Shown here piece after piece: positions 10,288 to 26,003 of a stretch of DNA of 64,000 nt. The notes below the pieces were generated by a model. It did no database searches. It saw only the letters and a program-made list of their open reading frames with translations, and was not told the DNA's origin. Source of the DNA: Desulfovirgula sp. (lineage in GTDB: Bacteria > Bacillota > Desulfotomaculia > Desulfotomaculales > Nap2-2B); assembly GCA_020725585.1 (NCBI GenBank), contig DYES01000069.1, forward strand, positions 1,750 through 65,749, in the 5' to 3' direction. Position numbers and translations under genes: made by a program. How positions within the stretch are numbered: position 1 is the stretch's first letter; the number at the start of each line of letters is the position of its first letter.

Positions 10288-12156
10288 TCAAGTTCCCCAG
10301 AAAAAGGTGCTCTCCGGCACAATTAAATATTCCGCTTCCGAACTGAGAACCTGCTTAATTTTCCCGTAAATACGGGGGAGAAGGGTGCCGATGTAAAATT
10401 TGGCCGTGGCAAGCTTCCCCAGGTAAAAGGCCGCCTCCTTATTTTCCTGGGCTAATTTAAACAACTCCTCGGGAGTGCCGGCGCCTGCTTTTTCGGCCAA
10501 CTCCTTTTGCTTTTCGCAGGCGACCGCCGCCTGCCAGAGGTGGAGCCAGGCCAGCACCACGTCCCCGAACAATTCCAGAAAAGGAGTTGCCGCGCCGATG
10601 ACGGTTGCCAGCTCGGGACCCTGACTTCGCTTCAGGAGCTCCATAACCGTTTCCCAAAGCGCGCTCTTTGCTTCGCCCACCGCCTGCGCATAAGGCTTAA
10701 GCAGCTGCTCCTTGCTCGCCTTGGCCAGTGTTTCATCCATGAGCGAAAGAAAACTGGCCAGCACTTTCCCGCCCTTCATCCCTAGCTTGCGGCCAAGGAA
10801 ATCGAGGGCCTGGATGCCCGTCGTTCCTTCGTAAATGGAGGTGATTTTGCAGTCCCGCAAATTCTGCTCCAGCGGGTACTCTTTCGTGTATCCGTACCCC
10901 CCCAGAACCTGAATGGCCTGGGCGCAAACTTCAAAGCCGCGCTCAGAAAGGTACCCTTTCACCACCGGGGTAAGCAAATCAAGGTAGCCCCGCCATAAAT
11001 CCTTCTCTTCTTCTGTGGCGGCAACTTTTTCCTTGTCCATGCACAGGGCGGCAAAATACATCAAAGCCCGGCCGCCTTCCACGTACGCCTTCATGGCCGC
11101 CAGCATTCTGCGCACGTCGGGATGCTGGACGATCGCCACCTTTGGAGCATCGGGCCTGCGCGCCTGGGTGAAGTGCGGCCCCTGGATGCGCTCCCTGGCG
11201 TAGGCCGCCGCCTTGAGATAAGAAGAACTTGCCAGCGCGTTTGCCTGGGTGCCTACAGCAAGCCGCGCTTCGTTCATCATCCGGAACATTATTTCAATTC
11301 CCTGCCGTGGTTTTCCCAACAGGTACCCAACGCACTTCCCCGCGTCGCCGAAGCTGAGCGAACAGGTGGCGGAAGCGTGAATTCCCATCTTATGTTCAAT
11401 GCCCGTACAAACCAAGTCGTTTGCTTCCGCCGGATCGCCCTTTTCATCGAGGAGAAACTTGGGCACCAGGAACAGAGACAGCCCTTTTGTTCCGGGCGGA
11501 TCCCCCTCGATGCGCGCCAGCACCGCGTGGACGATATTTTCCGCCAGGTCGTGGTTGCCGTTGGTGATAAAGATCTTGTTGCCGACGAGGGAATAAGCTC
11601 CGTCCTCCCGCGGGAGCGCTTTCGTGCGGATGGCCCCCACGTCGCTTCCCGCCTGCGGCTCCGTCAGGCACATGGTCCCGCAGAACCTGCCCTCGTAAAT
11701 CGGTCGCATGAATTTTTCTTTTTGCTCTTCATTGCCGAACTCTTCGATCATCTTGGCAACGCCGTGGGAGAGTCCGGAGTATCCGGTCAGGCAACCGTTG
11801 GCCGCGACGAACAGTTCCTTACAGGCCACGTTGATTATCTCCGGCAGGCCCTGTCCGCCCACCTCCGGGTCGTCGGACAAGCAGTGCCACCCGCCTTCGA
11901 TGAGCAGGCGGTGCGCATCGTGAAAAGGCCCGGGCACCTTCACCTCCCCGTTCTCAAAGCGGCAGCCCTCGCGGTCGCCGATTTTGTTCAAAGGCTCCAG
12001 GACGTTGACGGCCAGCTTTTCTGCCGTGTTCAGCACCATTTCGAAATCGTCGCGGGAATACCCGGAAAATTTTTCGTGTTTCGTCAGGCTTTCGACCTCA
12101 AACAACTCGTACAGAAGAAAACGAACATCTCTTGTGTCCACTAAAAGATTGCTCAT
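10288..12156 (-). CDS. large acyl-CoA dehydrogenase with C-terminal extension
   Basis: 622 aa. Motifs CLTEPQAGSD and GGYGYTKEYPLEQNLRDCKITSIYEGT (canonical catalytic Glu), plus an extra helical C-terminal domain of roughly 150 aa. Confidence 0.88.
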   Translation of the reverse strand: MSNLLVDTRDVRFLLYELFEVESLTKHEKFSGYSRDDFEMVLNTAEKLAVNVLEPLNKIGDREGCRFENGEVKVPGPFHDAHRLLIEGGWHCLSDDPEVGGQGLPEIINVACKELFVAANGCLTGYSGLSHGVAKMIEEFGNEEQKEKFMRPIYEGRFCGTMCLTEPQAGSDVGAIRTKALPREDGAYSLVGNKIFITNGNHDLAENIVHAVLARIEGDPPGTKGLSLFLVPKFLLDEKGDPAEANDLVCTGIEHKMGIHASATCSLSFGDAGKCVGYLLGKPRQGIEIMFRMMNEARLAVGTQANALASSSYLKAAAYARERIQGPHFTQARRPDAPKVAIVQHPDVRRMLAAMKAYVEGGRALMYFAALCMDKEKVAATEEEKDLWRGYLDLLTPVVKGYLSERGFEVCAQAIQVLGGYGYTKEYPLEQNLRDCKITSIYEGTTGIQALDFLGRKLGMKGGKVLASFLSLMDETLAKASKEQLLKPYAQAVGEAKSALWETVMELLKRSQGPELATVIGAATPFLELFGDVVLAWLHLWQAAVACEKQKELAEKAGAGTPEELFKLAQENKEAAFYLGKLATAKFYIGTLLPRIYGKIKQVLSSEAEYLIVPESTFFWGT

Positions 12157-12176
12157 CGCCGCCTTCTCCTTTTTTC

Positions 12177-14189
12177 TTATTCCGGATAAAATTTCTTTTG
12201 GAATAGCTGTTTACTCAATCCGGTCAGATCGGCCCATTTCAGCGGGCCGCCCTTGTCCGGCGGGAACCCTGTTCCCCAAATCATAGCCACATCGATGGTT
12301 TTCGGGCTGTCCACAATCCCCGCGTCCAAAAGCTCCTTACCTTTTTTAACAAATTCCCGGTAGAGAGCCATTTGGATTTCTTCGGAAGACATCTCTTTCG
12401 GCGCCCCCTTAACCGCAATGAGGGGCAGCACCTCGGGATCGACCCGCCCGTCTTTTGTAAAGAACCCCTTCCCCGATTTCTTCAGTCCAAAGCGCCCATT
12501 TTCCACCACTCTCTTGAGGGTTTCCGGGGGTTCAATCCCGCAGGCCAACAACGCCTTGTACTGAACGTCGATACCGACCTCGTCGCTTAGCTTAACGGGG
12601 CCTACCGGTAGGCCAAACCGGACCATTGCCGCGTCCACTTTTTCAATCGGTACACCCTGCTCCAGCAGCTCGTAAACCTTTAGGAAATACGGCAGGAGGA
12701 GCGCGTTGACGATAAACCCCGGGTAGTCCCGGCAGACGACCGGGCGCTTTTTAATGGCCGCCGCAAAAGAAATCAGGTTGTAGATAACTTCCGGGCCCGT
12801 CTTTTCGCCGCGGATGATTTCCAGAAGCTCCATCCGCCAGACGGGCGAGAAAAAGTGGGCACCCGCGAACCTTTCCGGGTTTTTCACGGCCCGCGCCATG
12901 CGGGTGATGGGAATGGTGGAAGTATTGCTGGCAATGATGCAATCATCGGGCACGAAGAGGCAGAGTTCCCGGTAAACCGCATCTTTTACCTCGGGGTCTT
13001 CGAAGACAGCCTCGATCACCAGGTCTACATCTTGAAAATCCTCGCCATACTCCGAGGTTGTCTTGACGAGGTTCATCAGGTCGTCGACGGGGGCGCGCAG
13101 TTTGTTCCTTGCGGCCATATCTTCCAGTATTTTTCTCACAAAATCTTCTCCCGGCCCCAGCGCCACGGGATAATCTTTGACCAGCACCGGAATCTGCATG
13201 TGCCGGAGAATTTCGATGACAATCCCGCGGCCCATAGTGCCGAATCCGAGTACTGCCGCCTTTCTTATGGGCCTGGCTTGAAAATCTCGGGGCAACATGC
13301 TCAAAGGCTTGTCTGTTTGTGTTTTAAGAAAGAAGGCATGGATGCTCCCCCTGGCTTCTTTTGAAAACATCACTTCCACGAAGTATCTCTTTTCGACCTC
13401 GAGGCCCTCTTTTAAGGGAAGCCTTACTCCTTCTTGGATAGACTTAAGCGCGTACATGGGCCCGGGGAGCTCCCTCCCCCGGGTGGCCTGCAACACCTTC
13501 TGACGAGCGATTTCAACCGCGGAATCGATCCCCGAGAAATCATGAACGGGCCTTTTCAGGACGGCATTCCCGGCAATAATCTCTCTCAGGAAACTTTTTG
13601 CCTCCTGCAAAAGGTCTTTATCTTCCGGCACCACCCGGTCAACCAAGCCCATTTCGCAGGCCTTTTTAGCCGGCAGGGTTTTCCCGCTCAAAATGAGCTC
13701 AATTGCCGGGTACCCTATCAACCGCGTCAGCCGCTGCGTTCCCCCGCCGCCCGGGAAAAGGCCGAGAAGGCACTCCGGCAGGCCGATCACTGTCGTCTTC
13801 GACTCCCTGGCCAGGCGGGCCGTGCAGGCCAGCGCAAATTCGTACCCCCCACCCAGGCAATGCCCGTGAATGGCGGCCAGGGAAACAAACCTCGCTTCCT
13901 CCAGCCGGTTGAAAACCTGGTGAAAGACATCAAGAGAACCGGCAAATTCTTCGCGGGAGCGGAAGCCCTCCAAAAACTTCAGGTTGGCCCCAGAGTGAAA
14001 ATTGTGGGGCTTTCCGGAAATAAAGATAACCCCCCGCAAATCATCGTCTTTTTCCAGGAAATCAAGAAGCTCCCCGAATTCCCTGGTGGCTTCCTCCGTC
14101 CAGGTGTTCATCTGTTCACCGGGAACATCGAAAGTCACGACGCAAATTTGTCCTTCTTTTACAGGCTGAAAAATTTTCCCAAAACCCAT
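12177..14189 (-). CDS. bifunctional enoyl-CoA hydratase / 3-hydroxyacyl-CoA dehydrogenase (FadB/FadJ-like)
   Basis: 670 aa. The N-terminal crotonase fold carries HGHCLGGGYEFALAC. The C-terminal half has the NAD Rossmann loop AAVLGFGTMGRGI and NTSTIPI. Confidence 0.9.
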   Translation of the reverse strand: MGFGKIFQPVKEGQICVVTFDVPGEQMNTWTEEATREFGELLDFLEKDDDLRGVIFISGKPHNFHSGANLKFLEGFRSREEFAGSLDVFHQVFNRLEEARFVSLAAIHGHCLGGGYEFALACTARLARESKTTVIGLPECLLGLFPGGGGTQRLTRLIGYPAIELILSGKTLPAKKACEMGLVDRVVPEDKDLLQEAKSFLREIIAGNAVLKRPVHDFSGIDSAVEIARQKVLQATRGRELPGPMYALKSIQEGVRLPLKEGLEVEKRYFVEVMFSKEARGSIHAFFLKTQTDKPLSMLPRDFQARPIRKAAVLGFGTMGRGIVIEILRHMQIPVLVKDYPVALGPGEDFVRKILEDMAARNKLRAPVDDLMNLVKTTSEYGEDFQDVDLVIEAVFEDPEVKDAVYRELCLFVPDDCIIASNTSTIPITRMARAVKNPERFAGAHFFSPVWRMELLEIIRGEKTGPEVIYNLISFAAAIKKRPVVCRDYPGFIVNALLLPYFLKVYELLEQGVPIEKVDAAMVRFGLPVGPVKLSDEVGIDVQYKALLACGIEPPETLKRVVENGRFGLKKSGKGFFTKDGRVDPEVLPLIAVKGAPKEMSSEEIQMALYREFVKKGKELLDAGIVDSPKTIDVAMIWGTGFPPDKGGPLKWADLTGLSKQLFQKKFYPE

Positions 14190-14192
14190 TGG

Positions 14193-14768
14193 TCATTTCC
14201 CCTTTATTTGGCCGTCATTTTCCTTTTTTAACTCCCACTCGCAGCAGATTGCGCTGCCCAGCGTCTCGGGCGGCAGCCTCAGCGGCCTGACCTTTATTTT
14301 TGGATCGAAGTTGCGGGCGTACATTTCAAACATAACGCTCTCCACTTCCCGGCAGAAATAATTTTCCCTGCCCTGTCCTTCCTTCACAATCGCCTGCAGG
14401 GTGGGGCAGTTGGCAACTTTTAAAACACCGTGATTTTTATCCAGCAACTCTACCTCAAATTTTAAATTCCCTCCCCAGGGAGACAGCTGCATGGCTTTAA
14501 AAAGAGACTCGACGTCGTTTCCGGTAATGTTGAAAAGTGTGGTGATCCGTTTGAGCTCATACCTGATGTACTTGTCCCACGCCCACAAATCACAGGCCAT
14601 GGCCGTCTTGTCATCAAAGCGCTCTTTCACGGACAGGAACCAGAAACCGTCAATGGCCATAAATAATCTGCTGTACATTTTTAGAGCTTCCACCAAAGTT
14701 TCTCTGGAAAAATGGCTTAAGGTAATTTCCGGACGGAAGCTTCCGCTGTAATCTTTCAACTGGCTCAT
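14193..14768 (-). CDS. conserved hypothetical protein (Cys-containing; no confident family assignment)
   Basis: The ORF runs 14193-14819. The likely start is the ATG at 14768 (MSQLKDY...) after AAGGA. The stop lies 3 nt from the FadB-like start, so it sits in the operon. The C-terminal Cys pattern is NCP...FCRE...ICCEW. Confidence 0.6.
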   Translation of the reverse strand: MSQLKDYSGSFRPEITLSHFSRETLVEALKMYSRLFMAIDGFWFLSVKERFDDKTAMACDLWAWDKYIRYELKRITTLFNITGNDVESLFKAMQLSPWGGNLKFEVELLDKNHGVLKVANCPTLQAIVKEGQGRENYFCREVESVMFEMYARNFDPKIKVRPLRLPPETLGSAICCEWELKKENDGQIKGK

Positions 14769-14828
14769 AAAACAACCATCCTTTTTTAAAGGAATTTGAA
14801 AGTCAACCAACCAGTCCAAAAAGGCTTT

Positions 14829-15971
14829 TTATAATCCGAAAGCTTTGGCAATAATATTTTTTTGTATTTGGGTAGTTCCGCCCCCGATGGAGAGAATTAA
14901 AACATCCCGAAGGTACCTCTGCATGTCAAAATCCATCGCGGCGCTGTACCCACCCAAAATATTCATCCCCTGGAGAACTATTTTTTTGGCGGTTTCTGAG
15001 CTGAACCACTTAGACATGGAAGATTCCTTCGCGCATTCCAGGTGTTGGGTTTCCTTCCAGGCCGCGGAATAAGCTAGCCAGCGGGCTGCTTCGAGCTCGG
15101 TCGCCATTTCCACAAGCCTGTGCTTTATTCCCTGGAAGGCTTCCTCTGAGCTTCCCTTAAATCTTTCCTTGACAAACGTCAGAGCATCCTCGAAAGCCGC
15201 CTGGGCGATGCCCAGGGCGCAGGAAGAGAGGACGAGCCTCTCCGTGTTTAACAGTTTGACCATCTGTGTCCAACCTTTGTGAAGGCATCCTTCTCCCCCC
15301 AGGATGTCTTCCGGAGAAACTTTTACATCTTCGTAAAAAACTTCGCACGTATTTGACCCGCGGTAGCCCAGTTTTTCCAGTGGTCTCGCCTGGTACCCCG
15401 CCGATTTTGTCGGGACAAGAAACGCCGTAATTCCTTTGTGCTTCTCTTCTCCCGTGCGCGCGAAGGTGATCGCAATATCGCAAACGCCCGCCCCGGTGAT
15501 GAAGATCTTGCTGCCGTTAAGGCGATAATAACCGTCCTCGTAAACAGCCCTGGTTTTAATGCTGGCAGCGTCGGAACCGGCATTCGGCTCCGTTAAGGCA
15601 AAACAAAATTTCATTTCCCCTTTGGCCAACACCGGCAAATACATTTTCTTTTGTCCCTCGTTGCCGTTAATGGTGATAATTTCGTTTCCGTATAACAAGA
15701 TGTTGCCCAGCGCCCAGGCCAGGACGGGCAGCCTCTTTGATATCTCCTCATAGATGAGCATTGTGTCGATGACGTCCCCGCCCTCACCCCCGTATTCCTT
15801 TGGAATGTTTACACGCGTAAACCCCAGGCTGCTTAATTTTTTTAAAAGCGCGTCGGGAAATTCATCCTTGGCGTCAATTTCCCTGGCGTATTCCCTAGTG
15901 ATTTCCTTTTCGACAAACTCCCGGATCCGGGTACTTAAATTGCTGCGTTGTTCTGGCAAATAAAAGTCCAT
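14829..15971 (-). CDS. acyl-CoA dehydrogenase
   Basis: 380 aa. Motifs ALTEPNAGSD and GGYSAAMDFDMQRYLRD. The catalytic-loop position reads SIGGGT instead of IYEGT. Confidence 0.9.
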   Translation of the reverse strand: MDFYLPEQRSNLSTRIREFVEKEITREYAREIDAKDEFPDALLKKLSSLGFTRVNIPKEYGGEGGDVIDTMLIYEEISKRLPVLAWALGNILLYGNEIITINGNEGQKKMYLPVLAKGEMKFCFALTEPNAGSDAASIKTRAVYEDGYYRLNGSKIFITGAGVCDIAITFARTGEEKHKGITAFLVPTKSAGYQARPLEKLGYRGSNTCEVFYEDVKVSPEDILGGEGCLHKGWTQMVKLLNTERLVLSSCALGIAQAAFEDALTFVKERFKGSSEEAFQGIKHRLVEMATELEAARWLAYSAAWKETQHLECAKESSMSKWFSSETAKKIVLQGMNILGGYSAAMDFDMQRYLRDVLILSIGGGTTQIQKNIIAKAFGL

Positions 15972-16023: not shown

Positions 16024-16473
16024 TTACCGCTCTTTTTTATGCATCAGGAATTTCATTTCACAGGTTAAAACTACTTCCCCTCGCTGATTGCAGACATTAT
16101 ACCTCCACGTCTGCACACCCTGAGCCGGCTTGCTCGTTTCTCTTTTTTCGATAACCTCCACTTCCACCGTAATCGTGTCCCCTATTTTGACGGGTGCGCG
16201 CATCTTCAGGCTGTCCACGCCCAGCCAGGCGATCACCGCGTCTGCCGCTACTCCCGTCATCCCTACCAGGCCCACCGCCATGCCGAAAATCAGCGGGCCG
16301 TGCGCCACTCTTTCCTTAAAAACTGTTTTGGCGGCATATTCTTTGTCCACGTGCAGCGGATAAAAATCCATAGTCAGGCAGGCCCAGTTGACCACGTGCG
16401 TTTCCGTTACCGTAATTGAAGCTGTTTTAAACTTAAAGCCTATGTCAAAATCCTCCCAAAACTTCTGCGGCAT
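16024..16473 (-). CDS. MaoC-family (R)-specific enoyl-CoA hydratase (hot-dog fold)
   Basis: The ORF runs 16024-16497. The likely start is the ATG at 16473 (MPQKFWEDF) after GAGAGGGGGG. DFYPLHVDKEYA resembles the MaoC D-x-N-P-[LI]-H-x-D loop. Confidence 0.82.
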   Translation of the reverse strand: MPQKFWEDFDIGFKFKTASITVTETHVVNWACLTMDFYPLHVDKEYAAKTVFKERVAHGPLIFGMAVGLVGMTGVAADAVIAWLGVDSLKMRAPVKIGDTITVEVEVIEKRETSKPAQGVQTWRYNVCNQRGEVVLTCEMKFLMHKKER

Positions 16474-16500
16474 AACCGCCCCCCTCTCTCTTTGCAATTT

Positions 16501-16917
16501 TCACTTTTTGACCGGCTTGAATTTAGGCAGCGTTATTTCCTCGGTCAACTTTTCAAAAATAACCTCTACCGGCATGTCGCAGTGAACTTCCTCTGGTGCG
16601 CAGCCGACAACGTTCGTCATCATCTGCACCCCTTCTTCGAGGCGTACCACCGCAACAACGTAGGGCATGTCGGCAAGGAAAGCGGAAGGGGCGTTGTTGC
16701 GCACTATCGTGTATGTATAGACAGTTCCCCTGCCGGAAGACTGCACCCACTCGATGCGGTCCGAAAAGCAGAAAGGGCAGCTCATCCGGGGGTAAAAGAT
16801 ATATTTCTGGCAGTCCCGGCATTTTTGGATGATCAGTTTCCCTTTGCGCGCGGCCTCCCAGTACGGAGCAGTCCAGGAGTTCACCGGCGGGACGGGCTTT
16901 TCTGGCGTATTCATCAT
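16501..16917 (-). CDS. DUF35 Zn-ribbon/OB-fold protein (stand-alone)
   Basis: 138 aa. Zn ribbon CRDCQKYIFYPRMSCPFC followed by an OB-fold segment (GTVYTYTIV...VAVVRLEEG). The stop is 3 nt from the long-ORF start of the MaoC gene (about 27 nt from the preferred ATG at 16473). Confidence 0.85.
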   Translation of the reverse strand: MMNTPEKPVPPVNSWTAPYWEAARKGKLIIQKCRDCQKYIFYPRMSCPFCFSDRIEWVQSSGRGTVYTYTIVRNNAPSAFLADMPYVVAVVRLEEGVQMMTNVVGCAPEEVHCDMPVEVIFEKLTEEITLPKFKPVKK

Positions 16918-17004
16918 ATCCCTCCTTTAACAAATGGTTAAATTTACATCTTTTACCATCAGCTTGAATTAGTCCGGCTTATTGTGAAAGACTAAAAAAC
17001 TTTT

Positions 17005-18192
17005 CTAAGGTATCTCCGTGCCTAAAATTGTCACATAGGAGTCCATGTACGTTCCGCCGGTTGCAGTCACCACAGCAAATCTGGCCCCGCTTACCTGGCG
17101 TTCACCTGCCTTGCCCATCAGCTGCCGCGCCGCTTCCACCATCAAAGCGACACCCCCGCCGGCGCCCGTGTGGCCCTGCGACAGCATCCCGCCGTTGGTG
17201 GTCATGGGCAGCTTCCCGCCCGGCCAGGTATTCCCCGCGTAAACAAAGGCACCTGCCTCCCCACGCTTGCAAAATCCCAGCTCTTCGAGGCCGATCAGTT
17301 GAAACACCGGGTAAGAATCGTAGATTTCCGCAACGTCAATGTCCTCCGGAGACAGGCCCGCCTTCCGGTACGCTTCTTCGGCCGCTTCAGCCCAGGCGAA
17401 ACGCGTCATATCGGGCTCCTGGGAAAGGGCGAAATGGGTGACGCGCGATCCTTCGCCCAGCAAATACACAGGCCGGTCCGTCAATTTCCTCGCCCTCTCG
17501 GCGGAGGTGACAAGAAACGCCGCCCCGCCGTCAGCAAGAACGTTGGATTCTTTCGCCCGCAACGGCGTGGAAAGCATTTTCGAGGCCATCACCTCTTCAA
17601 TGGTAAGGGGCTTGCGAAACATGGCGTTAGGGTTCAGCTCCGCCCACTTCCTGTTCGACACGCATACAGAAGCAAGCTGCTCTTCGGTCGTGCCCGTTTC
17701 GTATACGTAGCGCTGGGTAATCAGCCCGGCGATGGCTGAGTAGTGCAAGCCGTAAGGGGCCTCCCACTCTTTGGAAATTCCCGCCGTAGAAAAAAGATCA
17801 ATTCCCCCCTGTCCGGTTACGCCCGTGCCGAGCCTGTCGGAATGGACGCAGAGCACGCTCCTGGCCAGGCCGAGCAGGATGAGGCCGGCGGCCGTTTTTA
17901 GCATATTGCAACAACTCGAGCCCCCGGAAAAAACCTGAAAGTTCATCCTGGCCTTCCCGCATAAACCAAGCTCTTCTACGATTCGGCAGCAAACCAGTTC
18001 CGTGTTGTACTGGGGGCTCCAAAGGGCAGCCGTTGGAATAACCGCGTCAATCTCTTCTTTCTTTATCCCTGCGTCAATGATGGCCTGTCTGGCCGACGCG
18101 ACGGCAGAGACGATGGGCTCGCGCTCAGGAAACCTTCCGCTGGGAACTTCCCCAATGCCGACGATGGCCACCTTTCCTTTTAAATCGTCCAT
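17005..18192 (-). CDS. SCP-x/thiolase-fold protein lacking canonical catalytic Cys/His (Ltp2-like putative aldolase)
   Basis: The ORF runs 17005-18240. The likely start is the ATG at 18192 (MDDLKGKVAIVGIG) after GGAGGGG. It aligns well by eye to the neighbouring thiolase, but the catalytic positions differ. The nucleophile loop reads FSGGSSCC (thiolase: NMCATAS), EIYDSY replaces EVHDCF, and GGMLSQGHT replaces GGLKCFGHP. Confidence 0.8.
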   Translation of the reverse strand: MDDLKGKVAIVGIGEVPSGRFPEREPIVSAVASARQAIIDAGIKKEEIDAVIPTAALWSPQYNTELVCCRIVEELGLCGKARMNFQVFSGGSSCCNMLKTAAGLILLGLARSVLCVHSDRLGTGVTGQGGIDLFSTAGISKEWEAPYGLHYSAIAGLITQRYVYETGTTEEQLASVCVSNRKWAELNPNAMFRKPLTIEEVMASKMLSTPLRAKESNVLADGGAAFLVTSAERARKLTDRPVYLLGEGSRVTHFALSQEPDMTRFAWAEAAEEAYRKAGLSPEDIDVAEIYDSYPVFQLIGLEELGFCKRGEAGAFVYAGNTWPGGKLPMTTNGGMLSQGHTGAGGGVALMVEAARQLMGKAGERQVSGARFAVVTATGGTYMDSYVTILGTEIP

Positions 18193-18271
18193 TTTTTCCC
18201 CTCCTGCCTCGTTTTGTATAACTGTTGCGCTCTTCTGCAAGCATGTTCAGCCGGCCTACCTACTTTTTTGG

Positions 18272-19168
18272 TTATGGAACCAGCGTGTTTTTTAAACAAC
18301 GGCAAACCTCCGAATATTCCCTTGCCATGTCTTTGATAATCTCGCCGGCCGGCTTAATCTCCCCGACCTGGGCAACGCTTTGACCGGCGCTCCAGATATC
18401 CAGCCAGCGCTTTGACCCCAATTGGGGCTGTTTTTCCACCTTTTCTATGCTTTTCGCCAGCCAGCTGGCCGGGTTCCCCGTAATCCGGTCGGTAACGACG
18501 ATGTCTTCCGGACCGGCGGCAATAACCGCATCTTTATATGCTTGCGCCGCTCTCGCCTCTGAGGTGGCGATCAGGCGGGTACCCACGATCACCGCGCACG
18601 CTCCCACCGCAATGGCCGCGGCCATCTGGGCGCCCGTGCTGATCCCCCCCGCCGCAATTACAGGCAGACCTACTTTCTCCTTTAGATATGGGACCAGGAT
18701 TAAGGCCGGGATGCTGCCGCAATGGCCTCCTCCCCCGGCGCCTACGGCCACCAGGCCGTCCACACCGCAATTGCGGGCCCGCAGCCCCTGTTCCAGGGAG
18801 ACGACGCCCGCAAACACTTTCCCGCCGCAGGCGTGCACCTCATTCGCAATCAACCGGGGGTCTCCAAGAGCGGTAAGAAAAAACCTGACGCCATAATCGA
18901 GGCATAAGGCCAGTTGCTCTTTCCAGGGAAATTTACCGGAAAGGTGGATGTTTACCCCGATGGGTTTATCCGTAGCTTTCCTTATGCTCTCAAGGGCTTT
19001 TTTCAGATCGGCAAGCGTCCTGTAATTGGGCAACGGGATGGTGCCCAGGCCGCCCGCTCTGGAAACCGCCACGGCCAGTTCCTCATAGGAAACTAAAAAC
19101 ATGGGTGCCCCGATTATGGGGTAGTCAATCCCGAGCATCTCCGTAAAAACGGTTTTAATGCCAAGCAT
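18272..19168 (-). CDS. NMO/2-nitropropane-dioxygenase family flavoprotein (FabK-like enoyl reductase family)
   Basis: 298 aa. GIDYPIIGAPMFLVSYEELAVAVSRAGGLGTIP and GVDGLVAVGAGGGGH are typical of the NMO/FabK TIM-barrel family. Confidence 0.82.
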   Translation of the reverse strand: MLGIKTVFTEMLGIDYPIIGAPMFLVSYEELAVAVSRAGGLGTIPLPNYRTLADLKKALESIRKATDKPIGVNIHLSGKFPWKEQLALCLDYGVRFFLTALGDPRLIANEVHACGGKVFAGVVSLEQGLRARNCGVDGLVAVGAGGGGHCGSIPALILVPYLKEKVGLPVIAAGGISTGAQMAAAIAVGACAVIVGTRLIATSEARAAQAYKDAVIAAGPEDIVVTDRITGNPASWLAKSIEKVEKQPQLGSKRWLDIWSAGQSVAQVGEIKPAGEIIKDMAREYSEVCRCLKNTLVP

Positions 19169-19201: not shown

Positions 19202-20440
19202 TCACTTTGGTCCCACAATGATCACGCTTACCGTTGCTCCCCCCGGGGTGCCCCCCAGGTTATGTGCCAGACCCAGCCCCGGGTTCTTTACCTGGCGCGG
19301 CCCTGCCTTCCCCTGGATCTGCTTGTAAAGCTCGTACACCATCCGCAGGCCCGTCGCCCCGATCGGGTGGCCGAAGCATTTCAAACCGCCGTCCATGTTT
19401 ACAGGCAACTTACCGTTTAGCTCAAAGGTGCCGGCCTCAATTTCCTCCCTGGCGCCGCCGCGACGCGTAAACTGCAGGTCCTCGTAAATAACCGCTTCCG
19501 TAATGGAAAAACAGTCGTGGACCTCCGCCATACTTATCTCCTCGCGCGGGTTTTTCACCCCCGCCTCCGCGTAAGCGGCCGCTCCCGCGCGGTAAGTTTC
19601 CTTTACCATCGTCCAGTCGTGCCGGGGGTTCATGTACCCCTCCTGCGGACCCACGGCAACCTGCAAGGCTTTAATGTAAACGGGATCGGGCCGGAAATTC
19701 CGGGCCAGCTCTCCCCTCACCAGAATGGCCGCGGCCGCGCCGTCACTCACCCCGCAGCAGTCGAGCAGCCCCAGCGGCCAGGCAATGATGGGGGCGTTCA
19801 GCACCTGCTCGACGGTTATCTCCCTCCGGAAGTGCGCCTTTGGGGAAAGAGTGCCGTTTTTGTGGTTTTTCACCATGATTTTCGCCAGCATCATCCTGCC
19901 TTCTTCAGGGCTCAACCCATACCTGTTAAAATAGCTTGTGGCCATCATGGCAAAGTGCCCGGGGGCCGTAAACATTCTGCTCCGAAAGGTATTCAAGGCG
20001 GTCGAAGTAAGGCCCATGGCCAGTTCGTCAGTGGGCAGCCCGCTGTAGCCGGAATCTTTTAATTTCTCCGCACCGACGGCCAGAGCTATATCACATGCGC
20101 CCGACGCCACCGCGTAGGCGGCCTGCCTGAGGGCGTCAGAAGCAGTCGCGCACATATTTTCCAGCCTGGTCACCGGCTTATAGTCCAGCTTTAAAGTTGT
20201 CGCCAGCGGCTGGCTCGGGGCCGGGACGCCCGACCAATAAGAGCCAAACCAGACTGCCTGGATGTCCCCGGGGGAAATGCCGGCGTCTTCGCAGGCTTCG
20301 TAGACGGCTTCAATAACCATATCATTTAGGCTCAAATCCCAGTTTTCGCCGAATTTAGTACATCCCATGCCAACTATGGCAACTTTATCCTTTATGCTCT
20401 CCACTTCGGTAACCTCCCGCACGCAGGCTTGCTTTAGCAA
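19202..20440 (-). CDS. SCP-x-type thiolase (catalytic residues intact)
   Basis: 412-aa ORF. An alternative GTG start at 20404 follows GGGAGG. Motifs: ENMCATASDALRQAAYAVASG (nucleophile Cys), EVHDCF, and DGGLKCFGHPIGATG. Confidence 0.85.
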   Translation of the reverse strand: MLKQACVREVTEVESIKDKVAIVGMGCTKFGENWDLSLNDMVIEAVYEACEDAGISPGDIQAVWFGSYWSGVPAPSQPLATTLKLDYKPVTRLENMCATASDALRQAAYAVASGACDIALAVGAEKLKDSGYSGLPTDELAMGLTSTALNTFRSRMFTAPGHFAMMATSYFNRYGLSPEEGRMMLAKIMVKNHKNGTLSPKAHFRREITVEQVLNAPIIAWPLGLLDCCGVSDGAAAAILVRGELARNFRPDPVYIKALQVAVGPQEGYMNPRHDWTMVKETYRAGAAAYAEAGVKNPREEISMAEVHDCFSITEAVIYEDLQFTRRGGAREEIEAGTFELNGKLPVNMDGGLKCFGHPIGATGLRMVYELYKQIQGKAGPRQVKNPGLGLAHNLGGTPGGATVSVIIVGPK

Positions 20441-20461: not shown

Positions 20462-21877
20462 TCACCTCACCGGCCTGCACTTCCACCAGTAAACGCTGAT
20501 GCCTTCTATTTCCCGAAACTTCCGGAACGTCATTTCTACCGGCATTCCTATTGTTACCTCCGCAGGGTCGCGGTCGGTCACATCCATCATGATTCTCCCC
20601 CCGCCTTCAAAATCGACTACAGCAACGGTCGAAGGCGGATCGGGGGAAACGGCCAGGCTGTCGTGGGAAAACGTTGTAATTTTCCCCTGTTTATCGGCAA
20701 AAAGGTAGTATTCGAAATCGTCTTTGGAACGGCACTCCATACAGATCCTCTGTACCGGATACTGGACGGTGCCGCAACGCCTGCACTTGACCCCGTAAAG
20801 GGCCATTCCGCACTTTCGGTCTCTCCATAAGGCCACCGCCGACACCGGCTCCTGGCGGGGGCGCGCCGGCGGCTCGGCGGGAAGAAATCCGCGCCAGCGC
20901 AAGTATTTCTGGTAGCTCAGCTTTCCCTTGGAGGCAAGCAGCCTTTTGACCGTATTGCGTCCCCTGGCCCTGGAAATTTCATTTGTGACGGTCAAGGCTA
21001 TTACGTCACAACCGTCGCCGTAAGATACCCAGAGGATCTTTTCGCCCGGCCCGGCCTCTTCCAGGGCCGCGGCAAGCAGCAGCAGAGGCTGGGCAGTTCC
21101 GCTGGCGCCCACTGCGTTGCACAGAGAGTCCTGAACCTGGGTTTTTAGATCAAACCCCAGCATTTTGGCCACAGTGCTTAAGTACCCGGAGTTTGGCGCA
21201 GAAAAGACGGCCCTGGAAAAATCTCGGGCGGTCATCTTAAATTTCTTCAACGCCGCTGCAACAGCCTCGGCAACCGTTTCCACATAACCCTTTTCCCGGA
21301 CAAAGCGGTCTTCCCACGAACGTAAGCAACGCTCCTCCGCCGGCCGGTAGACGTCATAGATCTCGTTGCTGCAGCTGTACATCTGGTCAATTGTAGCCAC
21401 AACGCCGGAATCGCTCAGCAGAAGGGCAGCCGCACCGTCGCCAAGCTCCAGCTCCTTCGGCCCGTTGGGCAGCCCCAAACGAAGGTCTGAAGCACAGACC
21501 AGCACGTTTCTGGCTCTTTTCCCCTGGATTGCCCCCGCCGCCAGCCTTGCGCCGCCTGTCCCCGATCGCAGCGAACCGGCAAGATCGATGGTCAGCACCT
21601 CCCGGCCGAGATCCAGTGCGGCCGCCACTAGAGCCGCCGACTGCTTTTCGCCGTAAGGGAAGGTGGTGGACGCCAGGTACAGTTCATCAATTTCCTGGGG
21701 GCCGAACCCCTTCAGACAATCCCTGCAGGCCTCAACCGCCATTGTAACGGCGTCTTCATCATAACTGGCAACCGCCCTTTCCCCCGGCAGAGGCAGCCCT
21801 CCCCAAAATGTGCTTATTTCTTCCCGGCTTAATCTGTAAAAAGGTATGTAGACACCGAAAGACTTGATCCCGACCAT
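20462..21877 (-). CDS. HMG-CoA-synthase-like condensing-enzyme fold fused to a C-terminal DUF35 Zn-ribbon/OB-fold domain
   Basis: The ORF runs 20462-22012. The likely start is the ATG at 21877 (MVGIKSFGVYIPFYRL) after AGGAGG, which removes the overlap with the upstream gene. The N-terminal ~350 aa are HMGCS-like (SYDEDAVTMAVEA, VSYGDGCD). The C-terminus has CRRCGTVQYPVQRICMEC plus an OB fold. Confidence 0.8.
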   Translation of the reverse strand: MVGIKSFGVYIPFYRLSREEISTFWGGLPLPGERAVASYDEDAVTMAVEACRDCLKGFGPQEIDELYLASTTFPYGEKQSAALVAAALDLGREVLTIDLAGSLRSGTGGARLAAGAIQGKRARNVLVCASDLRLGLPNGPKELELGDGAAALLLSDSGVVATIDQMYSCSNEIYDVYRPAEERCLRSWEDRFVREKGYVETVAEAVAAALKKFKMTARDFSRAVFSAPNSGYLSTVAKMLGFDLKTQVQDSLCNAVGASGTAQPLLLLAAALEEAGPGEKILWVSYGDGCDVIALTVTNEISRARGRNTVKRLLASKGKLSYQKYLRWRGFLPAEPPARPRQEPVSAVALWRDRKCGMALYGVKCRRCGTVQYPVQRICMECRSKDDFEYYLFADKQGKITTFSHDSLAVSPDPPSTVAVVDFEGGGRIMMDVTDRDPAEVTIGMPVEMTFRKFREIEGISVYWWKCRPVR

Positions 21878-21966: not shown

Positions 21967-23403
21967 TTACTCTTCCCCTATGCCGGCCAACATTTCGGCA
22001 AGCTTTTTGCACTCGATTATCGCTTTTCTTGCCTCGGCGTAGATTGTCATCCTTTCAGCCTGCAGGGAGCCCTCCCCGTGAAGGGCGATTGTTTCCAGTT
22101 CCGCCCTGGTCATCCGGCGGATTAAATCGAACATCCGCAGCCTGTGCTCGGTAGGTATCCCGGCTTTGCCGCCCAGGTATTTCTTTATGTCTTCGTGGAG
22201 TTCAGGCAGCTGGTAATCCTTATACGTGGGCGCCGTGACCAGCAAGCCGCCCGCCAGATCCTGCACAATTTTCACCACATCGTGATACTTGCTGGCAAAA
22301 TGGTACTTGGCTATATTGGTGGTCACCGGATTCGGGACCGGTATCCCCCCGTGGACTACGTAATCCAGACAGGCGGAGCGCGACAAAGACCGGAGCGTTT
22401 CCAGATAAATCACCAGATCGGTAATTTTTTCGCGGACGTGAGGAACGTTTGCCACTCCGTTGTACTCGGCAATCGCCTGCGCCGCTCCTAAAAACTGCTC
22501 GGACAGCGGTATCCGGTACGCGCACCCGGTGCGCCGGTGCAGGAGGGCAAAGTTGTAGACCATTGTAACCGCGTACTGCCATTCTCCGCAAAGGAAGACG
22601 CGCTCCCAGGGAACAAAAACATCGTCAAAGATAATCAGCGAGTCGGTGATCATTTTCACCGGGCGCTTCCGCGGAAATTCGAAGGGGGTGATAAAGGGCT
22701 TGAAGGGACGGACCACCTGCTTTATTCCTTTAGCGTTGGCCTGGATGGCAAAGGCGACGGCGTAATCCTTATCTTCTTCCACCATGGCCCGGCAGGGAAG
22801 GACGAAAAACTCGTTGCTGTAAGCGGCGCCCGAAATATGCGCCTTGGCTCCCCTGACGACGATCCCCTTGCTGTTTTTTTCCACCACCCGGACGTAAAAG
22901 TCTTTGTGCGCCTGCTTCGGGTCAGAAGGGCGCAGGAGCCGATCGCCCTTTACGTCCGTCACCGCCGCGACCACCGCCAGGTCTTTCTTTTTCAAATACC
23001 GGCGGTAGTTTTCAATCCTCTCGATGTACTCCTTGTTTCCCATCGCATTAGCGGTGATGCTGATCGCGTTTAAAGCATCCGCCCCGATGTCGTGAGCCAG
23101 AGGGATGTACCCGTCCCCCAGGGTTGTCGCCTGTACGATCAGCTCAAACTGCTTCAACAAATCTTCGCCGTTTTTCGGCACGTAGTAATAACGGCTGATC
23201 TCTTCGCCCAGCTCTTCATCGTAAACAACGGCCAGGTCCTTATAGGCAGGGTTGTGGGCCATTTCAAAATCAATGGCCATGCTGTTTACGCAAACGGAAA
23301 TTTCCGGATGGGCAGTGACATCTTCGACTTTTTCGCCCTTGTAATAAACCATCCTTCCGTCTTTTAAGCTTTCCCTATATTCGTCTGCCGTCATTAAACC
23401 CAT
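21967..23403 (-). CDS. 4-hydroxybutyryl-CoA dehydratase / 4-hydroxyphenylacetate-3-hydroxylase (AbfD/HpaB) superfamily protein
   Basis: 478 aa. The N-terminus MTADEYRESLKDGRMVYYKGEKVEDVTAHP and the overall length are typical for this superfamily. It has an LLHRRTGC motif near residue 290. Confidence 0.7.
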   Translation of the reverse strand: MGLMTADEYRESLKDGRMVYYKGEKVEDVTAHPEISVCVNSMAIDFEMAHNPAYKDLAVVYDEELGEEISRYYYVPKNGEDLLKQFELIVQATTLGDGYIPLAHDIGADALNAISITANAMGNKEYIERIENYRRYLKKKDLAVVAAVTDVKGDRLLRPSDPKQAHKDFYVRVVEKNSKGIVVRGAKAHISGAAYSNEFFVLPCRAMVEEDKDYAVAFAIQANAKGIKQVVRPFKPFITPFEFPRKRPVKMITDSLIIFDDVFVPWERVFLCGEWQYAVTMVYNFALLHRRTGCAYRIPLSEQFLGAAQAIAEYNGVANVPHVREKITDLVIYLETLRSLSRSACLDYVVHGGIPVPNPVTTNIAKYHFASKYHDVVKIVQDLAGGLLVTAPTYKDYQLPELHEDIKKYLGGKAGIPTEHRLRMFDLIRRMTRAELETIALHGEGSLQAERMTIYAEARKAIIECKKLAEMLAGIGEE

Positions 23404-23496
23404 CTGTCGTTCACCTCTTTATAAAAAATTGCAGAAAAAATTACGGTTTGGCCCGCATCCGCCCCGCAAAAGGGCAGCCCGCGGGCCGCATCTTTT

Positions 23497-25110
23497 CTAC
23501 CAGTGCGTGGGCACCCGCGGAGTTCCGCGGTGGTACGGCGGGAAGATCTGGTCTTCGTAGTTGGTGCCCATCATCGCGTCCACGCACATGACGGCGCACA
23601 AGGAAGCTCCGTCAACGCCTCCGCCCCACATGCGCTTTCCGTACTGATCGCCTACGAAGTAGAGCCCTTCTACCCACGGGCACTTCACATCCGGCCTCTC
23701 CTTCCCGACGGGGCGCCAGTGCCCGTAGGCTTCGTCGGAAGGAGTCCACAGGCTGAACAGCACGTCTTCCTCCCAGGTCGGGAACGTCTTTCTGGCCCAG
23801 GCCTCGCACCACTCTATGCACCTCTTCACCTTCTGCGGGTTGCGCATTTCCGCATCCGTCAGGGCCACGGAGAACACGAAATCGCGCATCCCGTCGGGGC
23901 CCCTTCCCTGTTTATCGGCAAGGGTAGGCTTAGATACGCTGCCCCGGGCGCTGGAAACCATGTTCCACATCACGACGTCAACGCAGCCGATATAACCTTC
24001 GTGTCTGATCACGCCGGGCATGTAGATGAAGCTCCGCTCGTCTACCCCTTTCTCCGCCCACACGTCCCTCTTCAACCCGATGAAGCCGGAAAGCAGCCCA
24101 GGCGACCAGAATTCAGTCTCGACGGTCTTAACCCAGTCCGCCGGGAAGTGTCTGCGGTGCAGAACGCTGAAGATGTTTTTGGGCGGGATGTTGCAGACGA
24201 CCGCGTCCGCATGGATGGTCTCCGTACCGCTCTTCGTGCGGATAATCACGCCCCTGGCCCGGCCGCCTTCAATAATCACCTGGTCAACCAGCGTGCTCCT
24301 TAAGATTTCACCGCCGTTTTCCACCAGGCATTCTTCCATTGCCAGGGGAATGGCGATGCAGCCGGGATTGGCCACCGTTCCAACGGAGCCAGTCACGAGG
24401 TTCATTTTGATGTCCCTCTGGATCGCCATGTAGCCGAGGAAATCTCCGGCGGGCGTCATTGCAGGCTCGGCCTGAGCCGTCTGGGAGGAAGCCAGAACCT
24501 TGATGTAGTCGTACGCCTCGGGGTGAAACCCCCTCTTGTCCAGCCATTCCTGAAGGGAAATATTCATTTGGGCGGCTGCTTCGGTAAGATCCATTCTCCC
24601 CATGTCACGTAGCGCCTTCATGGTCATGGCGTAGCCTTCCGAAGACATCCACTGGTACGGCTGGCCCTTCCCCACCTGGTAGGCCTTGTTGCCGCGTTCA
24701 TAGTCAACAAACGCGAATCCCGTGTTGACAGGGATGTCCACCGGCTTCCCCAGGTGGTCCAACAGAAAGCGCACCCTTCCCTTGTTGCCCCAAAACAGGC
24801 CGTGGCCTCCCGCTTCAAACGTCCAGCCGTCGAGGAGACCCTTCTTAAACATCGTCTCGATGTCCGGCTGGCAGTACCCTATCCAGCACTTGGCCAGTTC
24901 GAGCGCGTATTTAAAGCCATCCGCATCAAGCTCCAGGCCGTCGATAACGACCCTGTCCCCTTTGCCGACAAACGAAGCCACCCGCCCTCCGATGTACGGG
25001 GCCTTCTCCAAGACAAGCACTTTCATCTTGAAGTCCTTGGCCAGCATCGCCGCCACGCCCATGCCGCCGACTCCCGAACCAATAACCACGGCGTCGTATT
25101 TTTTCGCCAT
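23497..25110 (-). CDS. NAD(P)/FAD-dependent oxidoreductase, phytoene-desaturase (CrtI)-like
   Basis: 537 aa. YDAVVIGSGVGGMGVAAMLAK...VLVLEKAPYIGGR is the amine-oxidase/CrtI-type dinucleotide fold. Confidence 0.75.
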   Translation of the reverse strand: MAKKYDAVVIGSGVGGMGVAAMLAKDFKMKVLVLEKAPYIGGRVASFVGKGDRVVIDGLELDADGFKYALELAKCWIGYCQPDIETMFKKGLLDGWTFEAGGHGLFWGNKGRVRFLLDHLGKPVDIPVNTGFAFVDYERGNKAYQVGKGQPYQWMSSEGYAMTMKALRDMGRMDLTEAAAQMNISLQEWLDKRGFHPEAYDYIKVLASSQTAQAEPAMTPAGDFLGYMAIQRDIKMNLVTGSVGTVANPGCIAIPLAMEECLVENGGEILRSTLVDQVIIEGGRARGVIIRTKSGTETIHADAVVCNIPPKNIFSVLHRRHFPADWVKTVETEFWSPGLLSGFIGLKRDVWAEKGVDERSFIYMPGVIRHEGYIGCVDVVMWNMVSSARGSVSKPTLADKQGRGPDGMRDFVFSVALTDAEMRNPQKVKRCIEWCEAWARKTFPTWEEDVLFSLWTPSDEAYGHWRPVGKERPDVKCPWVEGLYFVGDQYGKRMWGGGVDGASLCAVMCVDAMMGTNYEDQIFPPYHRGTPRVPTHW

Positions 25111-25133
25111 TGCCAGACCTCCTTAAAAACCGT

Positions 25134-25161
25134 AATTTAAATAGTTACAATTTAAATAGTT
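25134..25161 (-). promoter_or_regulatory. two direct copies of AATTTAAATAGTT (each containing the palindrome ATTTAAAT), 15-bp period, just upstream of the CrtI-like gene
   Basis: Exact 13-bp copies at 25134-25146 and 25149-25161, in the A/T-rich 128-bp gap between the SDR gene and the oxidoreductase gene. Confidence 0.4.
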
Positions 25162-25238
25162 CTCTCTTTTTGTATTTAGGCTAAATAGAAGAATGAAGGT
25201 AACTTAAATTTTAATTAACAGTTAGATTAAAGTGCCAA

Positions 25239-26003
25239 TTAGAGCGACCCACCCCCATCCATAACGATAGTCTGACCCGTCACGTACGAAGAAGCATCCG
25301 AAGCCAGGTAGAGGGCAGTTCTCGCCACTTCCTCGGGCTGGGCGATGCGGTTTAAAGGAGTGTGCGCCATCTCCACTTCCATCAGCTCTTCATTTGTCCA
25401 AAGCGCCTCGCTGAATTTGGTCTGGACGACTCCCGGGGCGATTGCGTTTACCCGGATGTTGTACGGTCCCAGCTCCAAAGCCAGCTGCTTGGTCAACATG
25501 ATGATCGCCGCTTTGCTGATGCAGTACAGGCCCAGGCCTTTGTCCGGGCTGATTCCGCCGACGGAAGAAATGTTGATTATATTTCCTCCCCCCTGCTCGA
25601 TCATCAACTTGGCAACAAGCTGGCTTAAGATGGTATAGCCTTTTAAGTTAGTGTTCATGATCTGGTCGTACATTCTCTCGTCCATGTTCACCAGCGGCCC
25701 CATGCCCGGATTCGTCGCCGCGTTGTTCACCAAAATATCAATCCGGCCGTACGCCTCCCTAACCTTTTCGTAAAGATTGCGCAGATCCTCCGGCTTCCGG
25801 ACGTGGGCCGCAACGGGCAGGGCCCTTCTCCCCAGCTTGCGGATCTCCTCGGCCACCTCCTCAAGGTGCGGTTGGTTCCGGCAACAAAAGGCCAGATCCG
25901 CGCCCGCGTCGGCAAAAATCATGGCGATGGCCTTGCCGATTCCGCGGCATGCCCCCGTAACCAGGGCAACCTTTCCTTCCAGCGATAGATAAGAAATGTC
26001 CAA
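25239..26003 (-). CDS. SDR-family oxidoreductase (FabG-like 3-oxoacyl/3-hydroxyacyl reductase)
   Basis: 254 aa. Motifs GKVALVTGACRGIGKAIA, NNAA and the catalytic YCISKAAI (YxxxK). Confidence 0.9.
   Translation of the reverse strand: MDISYLSLEGKVALVTGACRGIGKAIAMIFADAGADLAFCCRNQPHLEEVAEEIRKLGRRALPVAAHVRKPEDLRNLYEKVREAYGRIDILVNNAATNPGMGPLVNMDERMYDQIMNTNLKGYTILSQLVAKLMIEQGGGNIINISSVGGISPDKGLGLYCISKAAIIMLTKQLALELGPYNIRVNAIAPGVVQTKFSEALWTNEELMEVEMAHTPLNRIAQPEEVARTALYLASDASSYVTGQTIVMDGGGSL

Follow-up and report, generated by a model that had tools for sequence, protein, structure and literature searches.

A Cys-less thiolase-fold protein with free DUF35 and MaoC partners: a candidate hydratase-aldolase module in Desulfovirgula and many other bacteria

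We analyzed a stretch of 64,000 nucleotides from a Desulfovirgula sp. (contig DYES01000069.1 of assembly GCA_020725585.1), here called the window, in which a thiolase-fold protein lacking the catalytic Cys residues (THL) is encoded beside a free-standing DUF35 protein and a MaoC-type hydratase. Judged from its sequence, THL belongs to the aldolase-type branch of the fold but is neither an Ltp2, the actinobacterial steroid C3 side-chain aldolase, nor a Sal, the proteobacterial bile-acid C5 side-chain aldolase. We favor, with some reserve, the reading that the three proteins form a two-step C-C bond cleavage module, a hydratase and a retro-aldolase, inside an acyl-CoA catabolic operon. The genes of the trio are as follows.

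17005-18192, minus strand: THL, the Cys-less thiolase-fold protein and candidate retro-aldolase, 395 aa (Pfam, PDB, alignment and tree)
16501-16917, minus strand: free-standing DUF35 protein with a Cys4 zinc ribbon and an OB fold, 138 aa (Pfam, PDB)
16024-16473, minus strand: single hot-dog MaoC-type (R)-specific enoyl-CoA hydratase, 149 aa (Pfam, PDB)

These three adjacent genes had been described from the sequence alone, and they are real: open reading frames (ORFs), starts and Pfam domains agree. The ORFs of THL and the MaoC protein extend over 17005-18240 and 16024-16497, with the true starts at the ATGs at 18192 and 16473, preceded by GGCAGGAGGGG and GAGAGGGGGG, respectively. The DUF35 ORF is 16501-16917 and AAAGGAGGG precedes its ATG. 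All three genes have good ribosome-binding sites. The intergenic gaps are 27 nt (MaoC/DUF35) and 87 nt (DUF35/THL), with 79 nt to the flanking gene for an NMO/FabK-like enzyme and 52 nt to that for an acyl-CoA dehydrogenase (ACAD). Every gene in this part of the window is on the minus strand, and the short gaps within the trio and to its neighbors give it the layout of an operon. Promoter and terminator scans gave chance-level hits only. Pfam recognizes Thiolase_C_1 in THL (5e-57) with no match to Thiolase_N, zf-ChsH2 (1.5e-14) and OB_ChsH2_C (1.3e-25) in the DUF35 protein, and MaoC_dehydratas (2e-22) in the hydratase. No NCBIfam model names any of the three proteins specifically; the best thiolase model for THL scores 311 bits, below its cutoff of 421.

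The original prediction held that THL resembles, along its whole length, the intact SCP-x thiolase encoded nearby (19202-20440) while differing at three of the four catalytic positions. The full-length likeness holds (27% identity, E 6e-31). THL and the intact thiolase were aligned with seven solved structures in a structure-anchored MAFFT alignment. In it Gly91 (SGG-SSC), not a Cys, falls on the thiolase nucleophile (NMC-ATAS, AAC-ASG, NNC-STG), as had been predicted. The same Gly is found in CtSal (LGG-AS), TcLtp2 (YGG-GA) and 4u4e (VGG-SS), a structural genomics entry from Sphaerobacter thermophilus named a putative thiolase. The predicted change of the HDCF His to Tyr is likewise confirmed, the motif being replaced by Tyr291-Asp292-Ser293-Tyr294 (YDSY). 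Three of the four catalytic residues are indeed lost, His341 (GHT), the former GHP His, being the one kept, but the count had been reached partly for the wrong reason. It included the Cys of GGLKCFGHP, which is Ser in THL. Those columns do align; the Cys, however, is not a catalytic position, because bona fide SCP2-type and archaeal thiolases, zebrafish SCP2-type enzymes included, carry Ala, Arg or Lys there (6esq GGLKAAGHA, 7yvy GGLKARGHP, 6hsj GGLISKGHP). The real acid/base Cys of SCP2-type thiolases is that of HDCF (PMC12329534), and its replacement by Ser293 had been overlooked. THL shares fold, length and a predicted DUF35 dependence with the SCP2-type and archaeal DUF35-dependent thiolases (6esq, 7yvy, 6hsj, BbsAB 7pxp and the copy at 19202-20440), along with the GHP-type His and the glycine-rich C-terminal loops. 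Those enzymes keep the nucleophile Cys and HDCF, whereas of their signature (CxS Cys, HDCF, GHP His) only the GHP His is found in THL.

A scan of one genome per species found 124 relatives of THL, and the best 80 loci were analyzed with 10-kb flanks. Across these 80 orthologues the Gly-Gly pair, Tyr291, Tyr294 and His341 do not vary, and His150-Tyr151 and Tyr291 are invariant in the 34 closer ones. Thiolysis through a Cys-acyl intermediate is excluded because the nucleophile position is an invariant Gly. That THL is still a thiolase with a different nucleophile, such as the Ser or Cys of SGGSSCC, is in our judgment the most improbable reading of the protein: the window protein does have two adjacent Cys residues three or four positions past the nucleophile column, but its orthologues have SSS, STN, TSA and similar in place of SSCC, and the acid/base Cys of HDCF is lost too.

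Like the two characterized Cys-less aldolases, THL has a Tyr in place of the HDCF His. Tyr291 aligns with Tyr294 of Ltp2 and Tyr302 of Sal, the proven catalytic bases of these enzymes (PMC12329534). The acid side of the active site is different. His341 occupies the column of the Ltp2 general acid, Tyr344 (GMLSQGH in THL vs GQLGEAY), and both His296 of Ltp2 and Cys304 of Sal align with Ser293. Cys304 is the essential general acid of Sal, and the C304S and C304A variants are inactive (PMC12329534). In the PDB search alignment Tyr151 lies at the position of Gln161, the oxyanion-hole residue of Sal (PMC12329534). The active-site loops of THL are near-invariant across phyla (GGMLSQGHTGAGGG and YD[SAG]YP), which argues for a working active site. 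Members from Bacillota, Chloroflexota and Desulfobacterota are 70-75% identical overall, more than is usual in a catabolic enzyme.

To place THL among its relatives, we searched 1.84 billion cluster representatives, which returned 992 clusters at E<=1e-30, and built a neighbor-joining (NJ) tree of 129 full-length sequences with the motif state marked on each. The true thiolases (C/HDCF/H) lie outside a very large superclade of Gly-type, mostly Tyr-Asp sequences. Its members are the Sal clade (YDCY/Q), the Ltp2 group (YD[HA]F/Y), the 4u4e clade (YD[SA]F/H) and the clade of the window protein (mostly YDxY/H). Bootstrapping used 100 NJ replicates of 68 taxa, the window clade being represented by 13 sequences at 50% clustering. 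Thiolases separate from all Gly-type sequences in 100/100 replicates, and the window clade is recovered in 99/100. The Sal clade (87/100) and the 4u4e clade (86/100) exclude it; the window clade joins Sal in 0/100 replicates, Ltp2 in 0/100 and 4u4e in 1/100. Alignment and phylogeny thus agree in setting THL with Ltp2 and Sal in the Cys-less superclade. Very widely distributed and uncharacterized, the window clade is sister to the steroid aldolases Ltp2 and Sal.

The PDB ranking gives a similar picture. The best match is 4u4e (2e-63, 34% identity), which has the same Gly/YDSF/His signature; the second Tyr of the motif is Phe there and it belongs to its separate clade. CtSal (9myr) is the best-scoring characterized homologue (3e-52, 33% identity) and shares the nucleophile-position Gly and a YDxY motif including the second Tyr. 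It differs in Cys304, which is Ser, Ala or Gly in the window clade, and in Gln352, which stands where THL keeps the thiolase His. TcLtp2 (6ok1; 2.3e-43, 30% identity) ranks about equal to the best true thiolase, the Pyrococcus enzyme 7yvy (3.4e-42), while BbsB (1e-34) and other thiolases score lower. TcLtp2 shares the SCP2-thiolase fold, the Gly and the Tyr base with THL and differs in its motif, YDHF against YDSY.

The DUF35 protein points the same way. Its zinc ribbon is of the Cys4 type (CRDC...CPFC), and its closest solved relatives are the DUF35 of Shy (9myr_B, 3e-26), the partner of Sal, and that of ChsH2 (6ok1_B, 9e-25), the partner of Ltp2. Other DUF35 proteins score lower, with 3e-15 for that of the archaeal thiolase/HMGCS complex and about 5e-5 for PhlB and BbsA. 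The aldolase-bound DUF35 proteins lead the thiolase- and acyltransferase-bound ones by at least 10 orders of magnitude in E-value. The DUF35 protein is presumed to be an obligate partner of THL. The architecture is different from both known systems. The DUF35 of Ltp2 is the C-terminus of the MaoC subunit ChsH2, and that of Sal, with a Cys3His zinc site, forms one chain with the Shy MaoC domain, whereas the window DUF35 is free and of the Cys4 type. None of the 80 loci has a fusion of DUF35 to THL or to MaoC.

The MaoC protein is a single hot-dog domain, unlike the ChsH1/ChsH2 heteromer that serves Ltp2. It matches 1q6w (2.5e-28), PaaZ (2e-18) and PhaJ (2e-13) in the PDB, with 4ffu also near; at E<0.001 the PDB search found no match to the ChsH structures. 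Its MDFYPLH segment aligns with GDHFYAH of PaaZ and the Asp/His pair is intact. The nearest NCBIfam models, the PaaZ hydratase domain and RipB/Ich, are both below cutoff.

The original prediction had called the trio an Ltp2/ChsH-type module. Taken strictly, this label fails. What is shared with Ltp2-ChsH2 is the kind of DUF35 partner, the adjacent MaoC hydratase and the logic of hydration followed by retro-aldol cleavage. The acid Tyr344 and His296 are absent, THL does not cluster with Ltp2, the MaoC protein is not ChsH1/ChsH2, the DUF35 is unfused and, unlike Ltp2, the trio has no steroid context. Because acid residues, fusion architecture, clade and gene context all fail, THL is a family member of neither Ltp2 nor Sal. 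We therefore consider it very improbable that THL is a true Ltp2 or Sal orthologue with which an anaerobic Firmicute removes the side chain of a steroid or bile acid. The fold, the Gly, the Tyr base, the presumed DUF35 dependence and the MaoC neighbor would all fit such an orthologue, and some genomes with a homologue are Steroidobacteraceae. However, the clade is separate, the residues Tyr344, His296 and Cys304 are missing, DUF35 is not joined to MaoC, and Pfam and NCBIfam annotation of the 31-kb island around the trio revealed no steroid ring-degradation genes. The hosts, moreover, are mostly syntrophs, sulfate reducers and Anaerolineae.

To determine how widely the trio is conserved, the ORFs of the 80 loci were scored with the window proteins. 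DUF35 lies beside the THL homologue in 78 loci; in the remaining two the contig ends. MaoC directly follows DUF35 in 57 of the 80, and the order THL-DUF35-MaoC is fixed and kept across about ten phyla. With DUF35 in 78/80 and MaoC in 57/80 genomes, the arrangement is far beyond chance. Homologues 55-83% identical to THL are encoded in Chloroflexota, Desulfobacterota, Spirochaetota, Actinomycetota, Pseudomonadota and others. Carriers include Bacillota (Desulfovirgula, Syntrophomonas), Chloroflexota and Desulfobacterota (Smithella, Desulfomonile, Desulfosarcina). Further carriers are Spirochaetota, Acidimicrobiia, Gammaproteobacteria (Woeseia, Steroidobacteraceae), Alpha- and Betaproteobacteria, Acidobacteriota and Binatota. 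The module had been presented as one in a Firmicute. The host is indeed one, as THL is 83% identical to a protein from a Desulfovirgula metagenome-assembled genome (MAG), but the module is not special to Firmicutes. The product of a neighboring gene has a 95%-identical counterpart in a "Desulfotomaculales bacterium" MAG.

Two variants of the trio were seen. In a distant branch (55-62% identity; L058, L062-L068, L073-L080) from Mesorhizobium, Tardiphaga, Amycolatopsis, Nocardioides and Rhodobacteraceae, an SDR replaces MaoC after THL-DUF35 and the motif is YDAYP; this branch probably acts in a different pathway context. In four Desulfomonilaceae and Desulfosarcina loci (L007, L008, L017, L019), a thiolase-like ORF at about 12100-12230 directly follows MaoC. 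Its similarity to the window SCP-x thiolase is weak (about 150 bits), and it may be an additional subunit or a paralogue missing from the window.

We propose the following route for the trio. An acyl-CoA synthetase and the adjacent ACAD would make a 2-enoyl-CoA. The single-domain MaoC protein, by its family membership and intact Asp/His pair, would add water to give the (R)-3-hydroxyacyl-CoA. THL, probably bound to the free DUF35 protein in the manner of Ltp2-ChsH2(DUF35) and Sal-Shy(DUF35), would then cleave the C2-C3 bond by a retro-aldol reaction, yielding an aldehyde or ketone plus acetyl-CoA or propionyl-CoA; this step is suggested by gene order and family. Tyr291, matching the base of Ltp2 and Sal, would deprotonate the 3-hydroxyl. 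The acyl-CoA enolate would receive its proton from a different residue than in either known aldolase, with His341, Tyr294 and His150/Tyr151 as invariant candidates. Such chemistry would suit acyl-CoAs for which oxidation of the 3-hydroxy intermediate is impossible or undesirable, such as beta-branched, alicyclic or aryl-substituted ones. Of the predicted hydratase-aldolase module without thiolysis, the Cys-less aldolase branch, the aldolase-type DUF35 and the intact co-operonic MaoC stand; the implied Ltp2 orthology does not.

Several points weigh against this proposal. Neither known catalytic acid is found in THL, Tyr344 of Ltp2 being His and Cys304 of Sal being Ser, Ala or Gly in the clade. 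As the Ser of YDSY is not conserved among the 80 orthologues (Ser, Ala or Gly), it is not catalytic. Binding of THL to DUF35 is a prediction that draws solely on homology and co-occurrence. The AlphaFold2 model of THL is moderate (pLDDT 75), and the loop at 334-344 carrying His341 falls below 50. The model and Foldseek agree on the fold; all Foldseek matches, however, have TM 0.75-0.83, and aldolases are not separated from thiolases. A complete set for ordinary beta-oxidation, with an ECH/HADH fusion and a classic thiolase, is encoded in the same island, so the aldolase is not obviously required. Full-text literature searches returned only steroid systems and no work on the window clade or its biochemistry. 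The DUF35 named in a Desulfotomaculum acetone paper is unrelated.

The missing acid residues are also consistent with other enolate chemistry. THL could decarboxylate a beta-carboxy or malonyl-type acyl-CoA, or form a branched 3-hydroxyacyl-CoA by aldol condensation. The His and glycine-rich loops that stabilize the thioester enolate in all thiolase-fold enzymes are retained in THL, and any enolate chemistry would fit them. TbSLP, a Cys-less YDCF homologue, slowly decarboxylates malonyl-CoA (PMC12329534), although the authors of that study deem the activity marginal and propose an aldolase. We hold this alternative to be unlikely: no carboxylase or malonyl-forming enzyme is encoded in the operon, and the tight association with genes for a hydratase, an ACAD and an acyl-CoA synthetase, kept from phylum to phylum, typifies a degradative sequence from enoyl to hydroxy to cleavage.

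It is also possible, though decidedly unlikely, that THL is catalytically dead and serves as a scaffold or substrate-binding subunit, for instance for the hydratase or for the neighboring SCP-x thiolase and the PhlA-like protein encoded next to it. Three catalytic residues are lost, the N-terminal half has diverged beyond what Pfam Thiolase_N detects, and inert partners such as the PhlA-type subunits are common among these enzymes. Against this, conservation peaks on the former active-site loops, with Tyr291, Tyr294, His341 and His150/Tyr151 invariant, and the two Cys-less relatives that have been examined by experiment, Ltp2 and Sal, are aldolases with activity. A 94%-identical relative has an otherwise collinear operon without the SCP-x/PhlA-like pair, and most other loci lack the pair as well. 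It is therefore an accessory insertion and not an obligate partner of THL.

If THL is a retro-aldolase, it may define a new class. All thiolase-fold retro-aldolases known to date come from steroid catabolism, namely Ltp2, Sal and AedK, a steroid aldolase known genetically, and we found no characterized member of the window clade in the literature. We tentatively suggest, with less confidence than for the module itself, that the clade is a third, mechanistically distinct class with a Tyr base and a His or Tyr acid, lacking both the second Tyr of Ltp2 and the Cys of Sal, and that outside steroid metabolism it forms, with a free DUF35 and a small MaoC hydratase, the conserved core of an undescribed acyl-CoA route in anaerobes and aerobes. 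Its role could possibly be carboxylase-independent removal of a beta-branch as a ketone, or retro-aldol opening of an alicyclic ring. The hosts of such a route would include Desulfotomaculales, Syntrophomonas, Smithella, Desulfomonile and Anaerolineae, with Acidimicrobiia, Woeseia and Steroidobacteraceae among the aerobes. If this is true, thiolase-fold aldolase chemistry is not confined to steroids but also serves ordinary carbon cycling by anaerobes, the catalytic acid has been solved in a third way, and the clade's recurring operon of 8-12 genes marks an unassigned acyl-CoA pathway that seems to be common in sediments, aquifers and digesters. The placement also corrects the blanket label of acetyl-CoA acetyltransferase that many of these proteins carry (JGI names), and the clade could be a source of new C-C bond-cleaving or bond-forming biocatalysts.

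The trio lies in a catabolic island from about 320 to 31038 of the window, framed by TetR regulators (320-919, 27583-28164 and 28307-29515) and an MFS transporter. Besides the ordinary beta-oxidation genes, it codes for three acyl-CoA ligases, four ACADs and a flavoprotein like the geranylgeranyl-reductase family. The island genes most relevant to the trio are the following.

14829-15971, minus strand: ACAD, 380 aa, directly downstream of the trio (Pfam ACAD N/M/C domains)
18272-19168, minus strand: NMO/FabK-like FMN enzyme, 298 aa, directly upstream of THL (Pfam NMO, 4.5e-41)
8647-10215, minus strand: acyl-CoA synthetase, 522 aa (NCBIfam PRK06187, 501 bits, above cutoff)
21967-23403, minus strand: 4-BUDH/HpaB-family protein, orthologue in 17/80 loci (Pfam, NCBIfam)
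23497-25110, minus strand: CrtI/amine-oxidase-fold flavoprotein, 537 aa, orthologue in 25/80 loci (Pfam, NCBIfam)
25239-26003, minus strand: SDR, orthologue in 22/80 loci (Pfam, NCBIfam)

The acyl-CoA synthetase is the most widely co-conserved partner of the trio, with an orthologue (at least 600 bits) in 36 of the 80 loci across phyla, and is presumed to be the substrate-activating enzyme. The downstream ACAD has an orthologue (at least 400 bits) in 28 loci and likely makes the enoyl-CoA for the hydratase. Its nearest NCBIfam models are for ACADs of short or unusual substrates, namely acryloyl-CoA reductase and the glutaryl-CoA and cyclohexanecarboxyl-CoA dehydrogenases, all below cutoff. The NMO/FabK-like enzyme (FabK model 1.6e-50, below cutoff) has an orthologue in 19 loci, is co-conserved in anaerobic lineages and is encoded directly adjacent to THL in the 94%-identical relative.

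The SDR, the flavoprotein and the 4-BUDH/HpaB-like protein form a co-conserved accessory block (21967-26003, minus strand). Relatives of the flavoprotein, annotated as phytoene desaturase family, share 56-95% identity. We sought the substrate through it and dropped the attempt: the AlphaFold2 model is highly confident (pLDDT 93), yet its Foldseek matches are remote (TM about 0.6; MAO, CrtI, GDI), and a PDB sequence search matched only the FAD-binding motif. The 4-BUDH/HpaB-like protein is similar to AbfD (1u8v, E 1e-67). Cys99, Cys103 and Cys299 of AbfD correspond to a gap, Asp and Tyr, with only His292 kept. With three of the four [4Fe-4S] ligands lost, a canonical 4-hydroxybutyryl-CoA dehydratase was rejected; from its sequence the protein may be an Fe-S-free isomerase or dehydratase.

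The HpaB-like protein is widely conserved with the trio in anaerobes. Aerobic lineages keep flavoprotein-THL-DUF35-MaoC-acyl-CoA synthetase-ACAD, lack the HpaB-like gene and add an APH-type kinase, in place of which anaerobic lineages have the HpaB-like protein. The APH phosphotransferase is encoded beside a 425-aa ACAD in nine loci (L022, L030, L032, L034, L038, L040, L042, L045 and L048), for example at 13554-15954 in L040 and 8766-10001 in L032. The complementary pattern hints, as a lead only, at a 4-hydroxyacyl-CoA step solved in two ways, by a kinase with an eliminating ACAD (the ACAD10/11 and LvaAC arrangement) or by a dehydratase. Assignment of the APH-linked ACAD to the ACAD10/11 type was not retained, as its PDB ranking is that of a generic ACAD.

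As to substrates, beta-branched (isoprenoid-type), alicyclic or aryl-substituted acyl-CoAs are chemically sensible guesses, and the branched enoyl-CoA of the original prediction is a reasonable one. The geranylgeranyl-reductase-like flavoprotein (5632-6711, minus strand, 359 aa; 121 bits against a cutoff of 159) is encoded between acyl-CoA ligase and ACAD genes of the island and hints weakly at substrates of the isoprenoid type.

A second DUF35-dependent thiolase-fold system adjoins the trio on the minus strand, composed of the SCP-x thiolase (19202-20440) and the PhlA-like protein (20462-21877). The latter is a KASIII/HMGCS-like protein without a Cys at the nucleophile position (DLAGSLRSGTGG vs DVQFSGKSGTS in PhlA). 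It carries a fused C-terminal DUF35, and the intact thiolase comes next. Its best PDB matches are PhlA-type acyltransferase subunits (5e-40, 2e-36), narrowly followed by archaeal HMG-CoA synthase (1e-34). By sequence, the pair looks like a complex of the PhlABC/MucABC type or of the archaeal thiolase/HMGCS type with the A and B parts fused.

Other genes of the island were also noted. The DUF6125 gene (14193-14819, minus strand, 208 aa) separates that of the ACAD from that of the ECH/HADH fusion. Its counterpart in the 94%-identical relative is annotated as two genes (119 and 84 aa), pointing to a frameshift or split there. DUF362 (26085-27392, minus strand, 435 aa) is the first gene of its block. 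At the operon head, a 402-aa regulator (28307-29515, minus strand) contains two complete TetR units in tandem, each with TetR_N and TetR_C. An ordinary TetR (27583-28164) adjoins it, and both are kept in the close relative.

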